From positions 1 to 12,509 of the IMG/VR virus record IMGVR_UViG_2609460344_000006: a stretch of DNA of 12,509 nt. The stretch is one strand, 5' to 3'. Positions 7,301-8,503 of this stretch are shown here, piece after piece (positions within the stretch are counted from its first letter, which is position 1; each line of letters begins with the position of its first letter). The position numbers and the translations under genes were made by a program. The DNA comes from a virus (Duplodnaviria > Heunggongvirae > Uroviricota > Caudoviricetes). The notes beneath the pieces are model-generated. The model searched no databases, was not told the DNA's origin, and was given only the letters and a program-made list of their open reading frames with translations.

Positions 7301-7558
7301 CTACTTCGCTTTTGCTTCCGCTCGCTTACGCCGGCGCTTTTCTTTCTTCTCGGCTTTTGCCATGTCCATGAATGCCTGCATGATCGAGTTCCGCATCATG
7401 TAGCTGACAAAGTGATGATTGACACAGCCGTTGAGGCGCAACTGCTCGCCAAACTCATCCACCGAGGCCAATGCTTCCATCACGCCCTTCTCGCCTTTCA
7501 TGAACGCTGAGAAGTCGCGCCCCGCTCTGGAGGCGCATTCAATGACACGATCACGCAT
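7301..7558 (-). CDS. 85-aa ORF with a lysine/arginine-rich tail; probably the frame-displaced C-terminus of the KilA-N protein
   Basis: MRDRVIECASRAGRDFSAFMKGEKG...AKAEKKEKRRRKRAEAKAK. There is no Shine-Dalgarno sequence before its ATG. It overlaps the end of the KilA-N ORF by 61 nt in the -1 frame, and that frame is already open upstream of the ATG (PVADHNPRASG). Confidence 0.5.
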   Translation of the reverse strand: MRDRVIECASRAGRDFSAFMKGEKGVMEALASVDEFGEQLRLNGCVNHHFVSYMMRNSIMQAFMDMAKAEKKEKRRRKRAEAKAK

Positions 7559-8052
7559 CCCGGAAGCCCGGGGATTGTGATCTGCAACTGGTTAGCCAGG
7601 GAGTTAATCTCAGCGATCAAACCAGGTTTCGTGTAGCGCCATGCCGCAAGGACTTGCCCGCAGAAGCTCGCCATATCTTTTTTCTGATCAAACTCATGAC
7701 ACTTCATATTGAGCTGCGCACTTAAGCTGTTGCGATGCTGAAGTTCTCCGGTGAAGTAGTCATCCAGGACTTTATAGGCTGCATATTTAAATCCGGGGTT
7801 TAGCCATGTTGCATAATCATAAGCAACAAACTTCCCGCCATATGTTCCACCGTGTACACCGCGCTCAGTAAAAACCACAGATTCGTGGTTTTTCTCCAGC
7901 TCGGCTAAGAACTCTTTGGTCTGCTTGTTTCGCAGGTAGTGGTACGGAGATTCAGATTCACTTTTACCACTGGCTTTCCACATATCAGTGAGGCAGATCA
8001 TGCCATCTTCAGCGACACGGATTGGCTGATTGAAGAGGGTTAATGATTTCAT
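7498..8052 (-). CDS. KilA-N domain DNA-binding protein (Roi/antirepressor-like)
   Basis: From ATG 8052 the sequence MKSLTLFNQPIRVAEDGMICLTDMWKASGK...YLRNKQTKEFLAEL...GGTYGGKFVAYDYATWLNPGFKYAAYKVLDDYF is typical of KilA-N. I reject the upstream 23 codons of the track ORF. The tail PGLPGCVIVSLNAPPERGATSQRS looks out of frame. Confidence 0.85.
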   Translation of the reverse strand: MKSLTLFNQPIRVAEDGMICLTDMWKASGKSESESPYHYLRNKQTKEFLAELEKNHESVVFTERGVHGGTYGGKFVAYDYATWLNPGFKYAAYKVLDDYFTGELQHRNSLSAQLNMKCHEFDQKKDMASFCGQVLAAWRYTKPGLIAEINSLANQLQITIPGLPGCVIVSLNAPPERGATSQRS

Positions 8053-8202
8053 GTCGTATACCTGTTCTTTGAAATGAACCTTTGCCGCATAGGAAACCAG
8101 CCCACCGAGGCTCGCCAGCACTAACGGGTATCCTCAAAGGCCCATTCCAAAGGGTCAGGTTCGGTGGTTATTGTGCGCTGCGGTGCGCGGTGAAATATCT
8201 GT

Positions 8203-8228
8203 ACAAAAATGCCCCGCATCTGCGAGGC
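8203..8228 (-). terminator. Intrinsic terminator after the 83-aa gene
   Basis: Minus-strand RNA reads GCCUCGC-AGAU-GCGGGGC followed by AUUUUUGU. The U-G wobble works only on the minus strand. It is a near-copy of the terminator at 9888-9913. Confidence 0.7.
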
Positions 8229-8251
8229 TTTTAGCATGTGGAAAAGGTAGT

Positions 8252-8503
8252 TTATCGTCGCTCTTCAAGATAAGGATCTATGTTGCTAACTTTTTTGTAC
8301 TTCGGATCCTGCGGTAGTCGAACGGCGGGATCATATACAAGCCATATAGATTCAGACTTGCCATCTGAACCATCTGTGTTTTTACATGAGCGTAACTTGT
8401 AATGAATGATTCTATCTACGTCAGCGTACTCGGAGGTTGCATAAACTTCATATTTATTATCTCCGTGGCAAAGAATAGTTTTAACTAATTTTGTAGATGA
8501 CAT
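8252..8503 (-). CDS. Hypothetical 83-aa protein in AT-rich DNA
   Basis: ATG 8503 with AAGGAG 5 nt upstream. MSSTKLVKTILCHGDNKYEVYATSEYADVDRIIHYKLRSCKNTDGSDGKSESIWLVYDPAVRLPQDPKYKKVSNIDPYLEERR. No family recognised. It has its own terminator. Confidence 0.7.
   Translation of the reverse strand: MSSTKLVKTILCHGDNKYEVYATSEYADVDRIIHYKLRSCKNTDGSDGKSESIWLVYDPAVRLPQDPKYKKVSNIDPYLEERR

Follow-up and report, generated by a model that had tools for sequence, protein, structure and literature searches.

The region described here lies in a window of 12,509 nucleotides (the whole stretch of DNA that was analysed), which is 100% identical to E. coli cM8a, and the element carrying it is a lambdoid, Stx-phage-like prophage of this strain. 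The gene order across the region is Rz, Bro-N, 67, 83, KilA-N, 85, (ylcI), HNH and terS, the numbers denoting genes by the length of their products in amino acids, and all are co-oriented within the late operon. RefSeq marks the portal gene of the prophage as frameshifted. The features to which we refer, from higher to lower coordinates, are as follows.

9896-9913, minus strand: Rz terminator D2b (GCCTCGCAGAAGCGGGGC and a T-run), the original copy of the repeat through which stacking became possible
9751-9843, minus strand: leader RNA type B, immediately following D2b (R1 115.8 bits)
9432-9525, minus strand: leader RNA type C, with 8 nt between its end and the Bro-N ATG (R1 30.7 bits, R2 55.2 bits)
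8851-9423 and 8651-8854, minus strand: Bro-N gene and its ATGA-coupled 67-aa partner, the neighbouring stacked cassette
8590-8620, no strand assigned: hairpin/palindrome D1b, upstream boundary of the 83-aa cassette
8549-8557, minus strand: upstream block TGGCACTGT, pattern TGnCA(T/C)nnT, about 46-55 nt before the 83-aa ATG
8509-8514, minus strand: AAGGAG, which serves the 83-aa gene as Shine-Dalgarno sequence and is separated by 5 nt from its ATG, as read from the sequence
8252-8503, minus strand: 83-aa accessory gene (phrog_16949), low in GC and under purifying selection
8203-8228, minus strand: D2a (GCCTCGCAGATGCGGGGC and ATTTTTGT), the intrinsic terminator of the 83-aa cassette and a homologue of D2b
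8065-8154, minus strand: leader RNA type A, the P22F homologue, ending 12 nt before the KilA-N ATG
7498-8052, minus strand: KilA-N and ORF11CD3 gene, a 184-aa allele (165 aa in relatives) at the first-gene-after-Rz locus; RefSeq start 8052
7555-7557, minus strand: lost KilA-N stop codon, TGA in relatives and TGC here, by substitution at 7555
7301-7558, minus strand: 85-aa gene (phrog_875), whose ATG overlaps the normal KilA-N stop (ATGA)
7270-7300, no strand assigned: hairpin/palindrome D1a (CAAGCCCACCAGTAGATGGGCTTTGTAATGG), directly after the 85-aa stop, downstream boundary of the KilA-N cassette

The 83-aa gene occupies a cassette of 414 bp (8206-8619), both borders of which are set by blastn; homology to the cassette of a second locus, L005, starts at 8619 and aligns down to 8206. 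The unit is ordered as boundary hairpin, candidate extended -10 block, AAGGAG, 83-aa gene and intrinsic terminator. An initial annotation of this interval had described an ORF with an AAGGAG site in the most AT-rich stretch of the window and with a terminator shortly after its stop codon, and each of these points is borne out. The GC content of the 300-nt segment 8251-8550 is 0.383, the minimum of the whole window, and is 0.38 at the gene compared with mostly 0.45-0.64 over the rest. The terminator stem (8228-8211) starts 23 nt past the stop codon and has seven pairs, six of them G-C, followed by ATTTTTGT. Terminator-like sites are frequent in this part of the window, with nine in 6600-10000 compared to 3.5 expected from shuffles.

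Lack of conservation was named in that annotation as a finding that would count against the 83-aa ORF. About ten distinct homologues exist, with identity down to 35%, and dN/dS is 0.11-0.22 in the divergent pairs for which it is computable and 0.73 for the lone 94%-identical pair, the remaining pairs being saturated at synonymous sites. Because distinct homologues exist and dN/dS is low in the computable divergent pairs, sequence comparison identifies the ORF as a real gene under purifying selection and not a chance reading frame. Its description as an orphan holds only in part: the protein has no match in Pfam, NCBIfam or PADLOC, but it does match a rare PHROG family with no assigned function, phrog_16949 (E 3e-49). 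A tblastn search of 50,697 phage records gave no match, a PDB profile search gave nothing, and the suggested fold comparison was no more productive, with a best E of only 0.26 by Foldseek against BFVD. In the representative search, one match was to a large protein of immunoglobulin repeats and another to a low-complexity repeat protein; both were spurious. The product is predicted to form a four-strand beta meander with a short C-terminal helix, and would be a small soluble beta-sheet protein that perhaps binds a host or phage protein rather than acting as a catalyst.

The genomic contexts of the homologues follow a consistent pattern. All seven with readable neighbours (35-86% identity) adjoin lysis or terminase genes, five of them lying between the two, and the phages concerned have different terminase types. 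None of the seven has a KilA-N gene beside the 83-aa gene; among the fetched homologue DNA only L005 has one at all, about 5.7 kb upstream and next to the Q antiterminator. In all seven loci the stop codon is followed, after 0-31 nt, by a G+C-rich hairpin or terminator, which differs in sequence from one locus to another and includes a T-run in all but one. Upstream, the block TGnCA(T/C)nnT is present in 7/7 diverged loci whose flanks otherwise do not align, an AAGGA/AAGGG-type site occupies the same place in all homologue loci, and D1-like hairpins precede the gene in L005, L008 and L144. We infer from its retention that the block at 8549-8557 is a candidate extended -10 promoter; a generic sigma-70 scan found no consensus promoter upstream of the gene. 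Two other candidates in this segment were dropped, a sigma-54 promoter (TGGCAC-N5-TTGG), whose -12 element is not conserved in the homologue loci, and an IHF site, which does not match the consensus.

This organisation resembles that of a moron, a concept said to have been set out for lambdoid phages by Juhala and colleagues in 2000, and of which bor and lom of lambda are examples. The cassette consists of a single small gene with a candidate promoter and its own terminator directly downstream, its base composition is unlike that of its neighbours, and its insertion site, close to the lysis genes of the late operon, separates genes that related phages have side by side (Rz and KilA-N adjoin each other in phage 2851 and JLK-2012). 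The product differs from those of bor/lom-type morons in being a cytoplasmic-looking beta-sheet protein rather than a lipoprotein or outer-membrane protein. We suggest that in the lysogen the gene would be transcribed from its own candidate promoter, with D2a shielding the downstream late genes, and that in lytic growth it would be read through on Q-antiterminated late transcripts.

Downstream of D2a is the KilA-N domain gene, as the initial annotation had it. The second unit (7270-8232) consists of an Rz-type terminator, a leader RNA of about 90 nt, the KilA-N-ORF11CD3 gene, the 85-aa gene and a boundary hairpin. The KilA-N match (PF04383) has an E of 1.2e-15 and 57.7 bits against a cut-off of 23.8, covering profile positions 7-106 of 107, and is fused to an ORF11CD3 domain (PF10549; E 2.8e-11, 43.9 bits against a cut-off of 25); the protein also matches phrog_129, 'transcriptional regulator' (E 5.5e-61). 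No relative of solved structure was found by sequence for the KilA-N protein, nor any PDB sequence relative for the 85-aa protein, and a literature search for a described function of KilA-N-ORF11CD3 proteins gave annotation-level mentions only.

The KilA-N gene had been read as a damaged allele from which a 250-aa protein could be reconstructed, and an explanation to be weighed is pseudogene decay, whether of a 250-aa gene that has been frameshifted or of an allele that has been inactivated. In its favour are the lost stop codon, as a result of which KilA-N now overlaps the 85-aa gene by 61 nt, a leader substitution that is unique to the window copy and falls in the 5' arm of a covarying pair, and the frameshift that RefSeq reports in the portal gene. 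However, a three-way alignment with phage 2851 and strain SW070917 contains no indel, and both domains are intact. The change from TGA to TGC simply adds 19 codons, for a total of 184 aa, and also makes the second codon of the 85-aa gene Arg in place of Ser. Two separate genes are the usual arrangement, with all 22 intact IMG/VR alleles encoding a 165-aa KilA-N protein joined by an ATGA junction to a separate 85-aa partner, and ending ...GGGATGA(G/T)TGAT; several KilA-N alleles are usually followed by this 85-aa gene as their partner. Of the 1030 sequences in the KilA-N cluster, one is by itself present on at least 1000 contigs, and no 250-aa member is among the 15 listed. RefSeq annotates the 184-aa form with no pseudogene flag, and its spread over 55 contigs argues that it is tolerated; it may not be defective at all. 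Decay is thus unlikely. In the 184-aa allele ribosomes would cross the 85-aa start codon, probably weakening the coupling of the two genes; the second substitution, at 8126, alters the 5' arm of the covarying leader pair.

The initial annotation also linked the KilA-N protein to BstA and read the interval as a stacked defence or anti-repressor island rather than structural phage content. The accessory, non-structural character of the interval and its position in a variable slot are supported, but a defence function is not. An abortive-infection island, with a BstA-like KilA-N protein and the small ORFs as its partners, draws some support from the KilA-N-like N-terminal domain of BstA (PMC8585504), from the low GC and autonomous look of the 83-aa cassette, which are typical of conflict cargo, and from a weak partial match of about 30 residues between KilA-N and the PADLOC candidate system PDC-S22 (E 9e-9), from which it follows that KilA-N cores also occur in candidate defence proteins. 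Moreover, conflict-type cargo does occupy the post-Rz slot, since another E. coli prophage has a ParDE toxin-antitoxin pair there. Against this, the BstA profile (PADLOC PDLC02356) matches neither the window protein nor its 165-aa relative at E<=0.1, although it finds BTP1 BstA, the positive control, at 1.9e-124, and BLASTP with BstA gives no similarity (E 2.1). BstA, described by Owen et al. 2021 (PMC8585504), is likewise a prophage protein with a KilA-N-type N-terminal domain, but it has 307 aa and a BstA C-domain, compared with 165 aa (184 here) and an ORF11CD3 C-terminus, so that the KilA-N protein is half its size. The BstA family is marked by a gene adjoining the prophage repressor, expression in the lysogen and a cognate aba self-immunity element; bstA in BTP1 lies beside cI, whereas the KilA-N gene is in the late operon between Rz and terminase and not next to a repressor. 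The 83-, 67- and 85-aa proteins have no significant PADLOC match (QatB only, E 0.021). The closest architectural relatives of the KilA-N protein are Rha and antirepressor-type regulators (phrog_129, phrog_518), a grouping at the sequence level that had itself been named as counting against defence. We regard the defence reading as improbable.

The affinity to rha of P22 and BTP1 (orf201) is instead evident in several ways. First, the KilA-N gene, like rha, is the first gene after the Rz terminator, which has the same sequence in both. Secondly, the two share a leader, with the published P22F near-identical to window positions 8065-8146. Thirdly, BTP1 Rha consists of pRha and ORF11CD3 domains, and its ORF11CD3 domain is 35% identical to that of the KilA-N protein (E 3e-9). 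The genes differ in that the window gene has a KilA-N N-terminal domain in place of pRha, with no Pfam match to Phage_pRha, and is thus an allele of the Rha-type locus and not an Rha orthologue; in that the 85-aa partner was not found behind the rha-type alleles checked, nor is it annotated behind BTP1 rha; and in the lost stop codon of the window allele. There is no Pfam match to the ANT/KilAC domain of Ant/Roi-type antirepressors, and PHROG 'anti-repressor' matches to the ORF11CD3 region are weak (E 7e-5 and 2e-4). Alleles behind the same leader combine KilA-N, pRha or P22_AR_N N-domains with ORF11CD3, P63C or no recognised C-domain, and the locus is one that swaps N-terminal DNA-binding domains onto shared leaders and C-terminal domains, with rha as its equivalent in P22 and BTP1. 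The KilA-N product is most likely a DNA-binding regulator that is expressed late and is of the Rha or antirepressor type, a role suggested by domain families whose members are mostly uncharacterised.

The nearest relatives of the second unit as a whole are in the Stx-phage/HK97 group (kilA gp66 and gp65 of phage 2851, Stx2 phage 1717, and HK97p61), with about 95% nucleotide identity over the KilA-N/85-aa cassette and the same flanks (D1 hairpin, ylcI, HNH and terS). There the cassette directly follows Rz and has the 165-aa form with an intact ATGA junction, whereas here 1.7 kb of extra cargo intervenes.

The segment preceding the KilA-N gene is one of three copies in the window of a leader that is present in well over 100 more copies in enterobacterial phage contigs. 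Type A scores 30 bits (R1) and 69 bits (R2) with the covariance models, and is near-identical to P22F, an abundant 89-nt small RNA detected in P22 infection (PMC13397905); in the copy here, position 8126 is changed from A to C, within the 5' arm of a hairpin pair that covaries. The leader belongs to no existing Rfam family, Rfam 15 giving no match in the window at E<=1. Each of 111 copies in IMG/VR loci has an ATG 19-22 nt after AAGGTTCAT, with an ORF that is open past the 400 nt read in 104 and a short remnant in two; a start codon lies within about 25 nt of every copy examined. The common alleles scanned or annotated behind it are Bro-network genes (KilA-N, Rha, Bro-N, P22_AR_N, KilAC); type B in the window precedes only an 11-codon remnant ORF, while elsewhere it always precedes a full Bro-network gene.

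The leader is built as two hairpins and a short helix within a long outer stem. A covariance model trained only on type B also finds types A, B', C and D. In the leader alignment, which represents about five sequence lineages and is fitted to the model, 90.8% of cells pair compared to 38-48% in slid controls, with double changes in 18/34 pairs compared to 1-3. RNAalifold re-predicts the outer helices with 13/23 pairs compensatory; the first RNAalifold run (MAFFT, types A and B only) had only one compensatory pair, and the structure is clear only once the diverged types C and D are included in a covariance-model alignment. Scores on the sense strand far exceed those on the antisense strand. Compensatory changes, strand specificity and a fixed position before one gene class are thus all present, within few lineages and a model-fitted alignment. 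The outer helix of type C, whose outer stem is the inverted repeat I4, pairs with the AGGAG ribosome-binding site, and that of type A lies just inside its site; simple site-masking consequently does not fit all leader types. The interior helices have alternative pairings, the inner arms being able to pair in two ways.

Alternatively, the element might not act as RNA at all: it could be translated, as an upstream ORF or an extension of the protein's N-terminus, or be a site in the DNA where proteins bind or recombination takes place. Short frames in each leader type do open at a GTG or TTG preceded by a GAGGA motif, the frame enters the main gene in some alleles (some gene callers report 207 aa), and the element coincides with module junctions. 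However, the register of the frame differs between types A and B, the peptides of A, B and C are unrelated, and many alleles have in-frame stops or, in subtype B2, a premature TGA; a conserved leader peptide was rejected on these grounds. Only the sense strand shows the compensatory changes and frequent G-U pairs, and the RNA detected in P22 infection is of exactly this region. A non-RNA explanation is unlikely. We infer that the leader controls translation or transcript processing of the downstream regulator. It is possible, and we propose it only tentatively, that the element of about 90 nt is a member of an undescribed structured leader RNA family and a switch that gates translation of the regulator, or processing to P22F, in late transcription, perhaps doubling as a joint for domain exchange. 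Other structured RNAs of temperate elements, namely P4 CI/seqA and the Rfam families C4 and isrK (PMC10111431), are similarly tied to the 5' region of Bro-network genes. The leader differs from these in its architecture, in having no match to C4, isrK or any other Rfam family at E<=1, and in being placed upstream of the gene rather than within it.

The relationships among the repeats suggest how the units came to be side by side. D1a is a direct repeat of D1b with 97% identity, and the D1 element also follows the post-Rz cassette in phage 2851, SW070917, JLK-2012 and the P22-like SPN9CC. The terminators D2a and D2b form an 89% repeat, and a D2b-type terminator is also located between Rz and rha in BTP1. 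The Bro-N gene (Pfam Bro-N E 9.2e-8; PHROG matches of the cassette to phrog_5060, 'anti-repressor Ant', and phrog_4439) is within a segment, 9846-8696, that has 96% identity to Edwardsiella/Plesiomonas prophages. The Rz terminator and leader A of the P22/SW070917 type align up to 8217-8232. Because terminators and hairpins are duplicated and overlapping homologies meet there, the joint is placed at 8206-8232, and by comparison of these alignments the stacking is attributable to recombination within the shared terminator. Through a crossover inside the homologous terminators, a segment of about 1.7 kb, comprising leader B, the remnant ORF, leader C, Bro-N, the 67-aa gene, the hairpin and the 83-aa cassette, became attached to the KilA-N cassette. 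Bro-N and KilA-N, both genes of the domain-swapping Bro network, are indeed stacked with small genes, as had been proposed, and each has an ATGA-coupled partner, of 67 and 85 aa respectively; the partner of KilA-N is, however, not the 83-aa gene.

We conclude that 7301-8503 probably consists of two independent mobile units lying side by side in the hypervariable slot between Rz and terminase, one a moron cassette and the other a phage regulator. The anatomy and homologies of both units, and their independence, come directly from the search and alignment results; their expression, their biochemical roles and the mechanism of the leader are as suggested above. That the 83-aa and KilA-N genes form a single module, as the initial annotation had it, for example an operon of effector and regulator, is very unlikely: they are adjacent and co-oriented, and the 184-aa allele accompanies the 83-aa gene in four fetched loci and in three assemblies where the protein accessions are consecutive, but a terminator and a 90-nt structured leader separate them, the linkage is limited to one closely related prophage lineage, each unit occurs without the other in all other contexts (the 83-aa gene in 0/120 IMG/VR KilA-N loci tested), and L137 keeps the 83-aa gene and leader A without KilA-N.

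With two independent units as the preferred reading, several points extend beyond this prophage. BstA-type defence should not be deduced from the presence of a KilA-N domain in a prophage, which would here have been a tempting mis-annotation, and the gene overlap is a point-mutated ATGA junction and not a frameshift. The region provides a base-level example of cargo stacking in lambdoid prophages, in which short terminator and hairpin 'punctuation' common to the cassettes provides the crossover points (8206-8232). The 83-aa family warrants follow-up as one that is rare yet conserved and, wherever its neighbours are readable, located by lysis or terminase genes across unrelated phage backbones, and so does the leader, as a structured RNA tied to poorly understood Bro-network regulators; if it controls these, it would open to experiment a class of genes ubiquitous in temperate phages and satellites. 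Among complete E. coli genomes the stacked form is present in only 1/5426, and the KilA-N part alone matches 4076/5426 at the megablast level.

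The window is 100% identical to a chromosomal prophage of E. coli cM8a, and the RefSeq annotation together with ORF and Pfam scans places its late operon in a single orientation, on the minus strand. The gene order is given here together with the leader RNA copies (types A to D, by sequence) and the repeated elements.

Late operon features in the window, in operon order
Start 10384 (RefSeq), stop 9956, minus: Rz, listed with the holin and lysozyme genes
9890-9917: terminator copy, 89% identical to that at 8205-8232
9751-9843, minus: leader type B, past Rz
9432-9525, minus: leader type C, ending 8 nt upstream of the Bro-N start
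8851-9423, minus: Bro-N gene
8651-8854, minus: 67-aa gene
8590-8620: 31-nt hairpin copy, 97% identical to that at 7270-7300
8252-8503, minus: 83-aa gene
8205-8232: terminator copy
8065-8154, minus: leader type A, upstream of KilA-N
7498-8052, minus: KilA-N gene
7301-7558, minus: 85-aa gene
7270-7300: 31-nt hairpin copy
After the 85-aa gene in operon order, plus: ylcI/DUF3950
Closing the order: HNH, terS, terL, capsid and portal genes
Leader copies in fetched comparison loci: L003:6043-6138, L007:445-520, L029:1110-1199, L133:4583-4673

Since holin, lysozyme and Rz lead this order and terS and terL come later, the region with the 83-aa and KilA-N genes falls in the slot that separates lysis genes from packaging genes. 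It consists of a moron cassette, i.e. an autonomous accessory cassette of the late operon (here with function unassigned), beside a regulator cassette of the rha-locus type that belongs to the Bro network of domain-swapping KilA-N, Bro-N, pRha and P22_AR_N genes. The portal gene of the cM8a prophage is flagged as frameshifted by RefSeq (window 1-1675; L002:93-2677), such that the 454-aa ORF in the window (311-1675) is its first part only, and because of this frameshift the prophage may be defective in particle production.

The sequence observations of the initial annotation were largely right. The 83-aa ORF is present, with an AAGGAG site (8509-8514) 5 nt upstream of its ATG, and the stretch with the lowest G+C content of the window is indeed here (8251-8550, 0.383). 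A terminator begins 23 nt past the stop, with a stem of 7 pairs (8228-8211) followed by ATTTTTGT, and the next gene encodes a KilA-N domain (E 1.2e-15) as well as an ORF11CD3 domain (E 2.8e-11), both over the Pfam cut-offs. The functional reading, of a defense island with a broken KilA-N gene, is unsupported. The 250-aa protein proposed as its reconstruction corresponds to two separate genes in relatives, and alignment of this region with phage 2851 and with the prophage of E. coli SW070917 contains no indels. In the relatives the 165-aa KilA-N gene ends in GGGATGA, with the TGA overlapping the ATG of the separate 85-aa gene; the window reads TGC for TGA, and this substitution at 7555 thus extends KilA-N by 19 codons, to 184 aa, and also changes codon 2 of the 85-aa gene from Ser to Arg. 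Among the IMG/VR matches listed, all 22 intact KilA-N alleles encode 165 aa and show both the ATGA junction and the 85-aa partner, and of the 15 members listed out of 1030 in the 90% protein cluster most have 165 aa and none has about 250 aa. Contigs with the 184-aa allele number 55; three assemblies have consecutive accessions for the 85-aa, KilA-N, 83-aa and 67-aa proteins (and two of the three also for Bro-N), and in four fetched loci the 184-aa KilA-N gene adjoins the 83-aa gene. The number of contigs and the repeated neighborhood rule out a sequencing error as the source of this allele, and the stop-loss mutation is tolerated. The Bro-N and 67-aa genes are likewise joined by ATGA (8851-8854, intact, compared with 7555-7558 for KilA-N and the 85-aa gene, where the stop is lost), and it may be general among Bro-network genes that a regulator comes with a translationally coupled mini-protein.

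As a regulator allele of the rha-locus type, the KilA-N unit is ordinary, and it is not BstA-like. The PADLOC BstA model, which scores BstA of phage BTP1 at 1.9e-124 as a positive control, matches neither the window protein nor its 165-aa relative, BLASTP of the window protein against BstA gives an E value of 2.1, and the sole PADLOC match is to 30 residues of the candidate system PDC-S22. The KilA-N-like domain of BstA is visible to remote methods only (PMC8585504), and a Pfam search of BstA does not find a KilA-N domain. BstA of BTP1 has 307 aa and its gene adjoins cI, whereas the KilA-N gene lies in the late operon past Rz. The BTP1 gene that the locus does resemble is rha, which is located directly past Rz with the same terminator and the same leader, and encodes pRha and ORF11CD3 domains, the latter 35% identical to that of the window protein. 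The window protein belongs to phrog_129 ('transcriptional regulator'), and the small partner of its gene is the 85-aa gene (phrog_875, three helices), which is found downstream of three distinct KilA-N alleles and is absent behind Rha alleles, P22_AR_N alleles and two shorter KilA-N-only alleles.

The 83-aa gene is genuine, autonomous and rare. Among 5.8 billion proteins searched there were five clusters with 100-60% identity, and among 1.84 billion representatives, searched exhaustively, nine matches, two of them spurious. Ten family members can be aligned from end to end and share conserved blocks, and dN/dS is 0.11-0.22 in the four divergent comparisons that were computable, the other pairs being saturated at synonymous sites, and 0.73 for the window and its 94% identical homologue in L005. 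The gene matches phrog_16949 (E 3e-49), a family of unknown function, and has no match in Pfam, NCBIfam, PADLOC or the PDB; the AlphaFold model, a confident one (pLDDT 88), is a four-strand antiparallel sheet with a short helix, and the structure search advised earlier found no informative neighbor for it. Seven homologues have readable neighbors, and five of these lie between lysis and terminase genes, the other two being contig-end fragments that adjoin lysis or terminase genes. The phages concerned differ in their packaging modules (HK97-like, P22-like and lambda-like), and in none of the seven contexts is a KilA-N gene adjacent. Every copy has a G+C-rich hairpin, usually with a T-run, 0-31 nt past the stop, with a sequence that varies from locus to locus, and a conserved TGnCA(T/C)nnT block about 46-55 nt upstream of the ATG. 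By blastn the mobile unit spans 8619-8206, with the boundary hairpin at one limit and the terminator's end at the other. A unit built in this way has moron anatomy, with the upstream block as a candidate promoter. A degraded relative in E. coli GCA_014104435.1 (L137:3957-5439) has kept a 198-aa gene, the 67-aa gene, the 83-aa gene and leader A, and has lost KilA-N, with tail gene fragments and a transposase in its place; the 83-aa cassette therefore persists independently of KilA-N.

Comparisons with simpler relatives indicate how the stack is put together. Phages 2851 and JLK-2012 have, directly past Rz and with no insert, the terminator, leader A, KilA-N, the 85-aa frame (unannotated in the JLK-2012 record) and the hairpin. 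The P22/SW070917-type homology extends up to 8217-8232 and homology to the free-standing 83-aa cassette of L005 extends down to 8206, so that the joint is the shared terminator. The inserted block is itself a mosaic, to judge from its alignments: prophages of Edwardsiella and Plesiomonas share 96% identity with window 9846-8696, which takes in a leader B remnant, leader C, Bro-N and the greater part of the 67-aa gene, and 8880-8200 is 92% identical to another E. coli prophage. Leader B in the window precedes only an 11-codon ORF (MNASAASSLNV*, 9707-9742, minus strand), whereas in the other phages examined it precedes a much longer ORF, the scanned allele classes being Bro-network genes. The original gene of leader B has therefore been lost, apparently by deletion or replacement upon arrival of the Bro-N module. 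The stacked form is present in one of 5426 complete E. coli genomes, and each of its component proteins occurs on about 50-100 contigs of draft assemblies and metagenomes; wherever the neighborhood was read, these belong to a single prophage lineage. Recombination at shared punctuation sequences joined the moron cassette to the Bro-network regulator cassette.

In the SW070917 prophage a ParE/RelE toxin gene and a ParD-like antitoxin gene lie between Rz and the KilA-N cassette (L003:3752-4286), and this equivalent position marks the site as a recurrent point of cargo insertion. The 31-nt repeat belongs to a longer imperfect palindrome, GCCATTAtCAAGCCCAcC...GaTGGGCTTTGtAATGGC, common to the cassette ends of E. 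coli and Salmonella P22-like phages; at other loci the stem has another sequence, and pairing is retained. Its role may be that of a recombination hotspot, of a two-way terminator between convergent genes, or of both.

The most interesting element of the locus is the structured leader RNA. The conserved non-coding block between the terminator and the KilA-N ATG is nearly identical to the 89-nt P22F, a small RNA reported in 2026 from P22-infected Salmonella with its 3′ end 6 nt upstream of rha (PMC13397905). The window contains three leader copies, and a pattern scan of IMG/VR found at least 120 loci. The matches listed include 111 copies in two main sequence types, each with an ATG 19-22 nt past AAGGTTCAT; the ORF past the leader runs beyond the 400 nt examined in 104 of these, is shorter in five and is a short remnant in two. 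Eight Pfam-scanned allele classes, as well as KilA-N and Rha, all have a KilA-N, pRha or P22_AR_N N-terminal domain, some with an ORF11CD3 or P63C C-terminal domain. The distance from leader to Bro-network start codon is 7-12 nt, as for the type D leader of SW070917, which ends 7 nt upstream of a KilAC antirepressor gene.

Covariation supports a family of structured leaders of about 90 nt, homologous to P22F. From type B alone, a covariance model was built that also recovers types A, B′, C and D, and the window has no match in Rfam at E≤1. In an alignment fitted to the model and drawn from about five lineages, 90.8% of cells pair, compared to 38-48% with partners slid, both sides change in 18 of 34 pairs (1-3 in slid controls), and the covariation score is 0.33 (≤0.09 in slid controls); single-sequence z-scores are modest. 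The long outer stem and the helix next to it are predicted again by RNAalifold (13 of 23 pairs compensatory), which also proposes another way of pairing the inner CC(A/G)G arm. The sense strand scores 108 bits and the antisense 26 bits, and G-U pairs are frequent, which together indicate an RNA rather than a duplex DNA element. The outermost helix pairs the ribosome-binding site in types B and C, and in type A the site is just beyond it. The type A copy of the window differs from others of its type by C instead of A at 8126, a position in the 5′ arm of a P2 pair that covaries; the sole other copy with this C is that of the related E. coli locus L137. A non-coding part of the Bro-N module (9526-9750, minus strand), matched at 96% identity in prophages of Edwardsiella and Plesiomonas, has a pair of CCCC...GGGG hairpins as well as one strong, terminator-like hairpin (9596-9566, 13 pairs and a T-run), and may represent either a second terminator or the gene of a small RNA.
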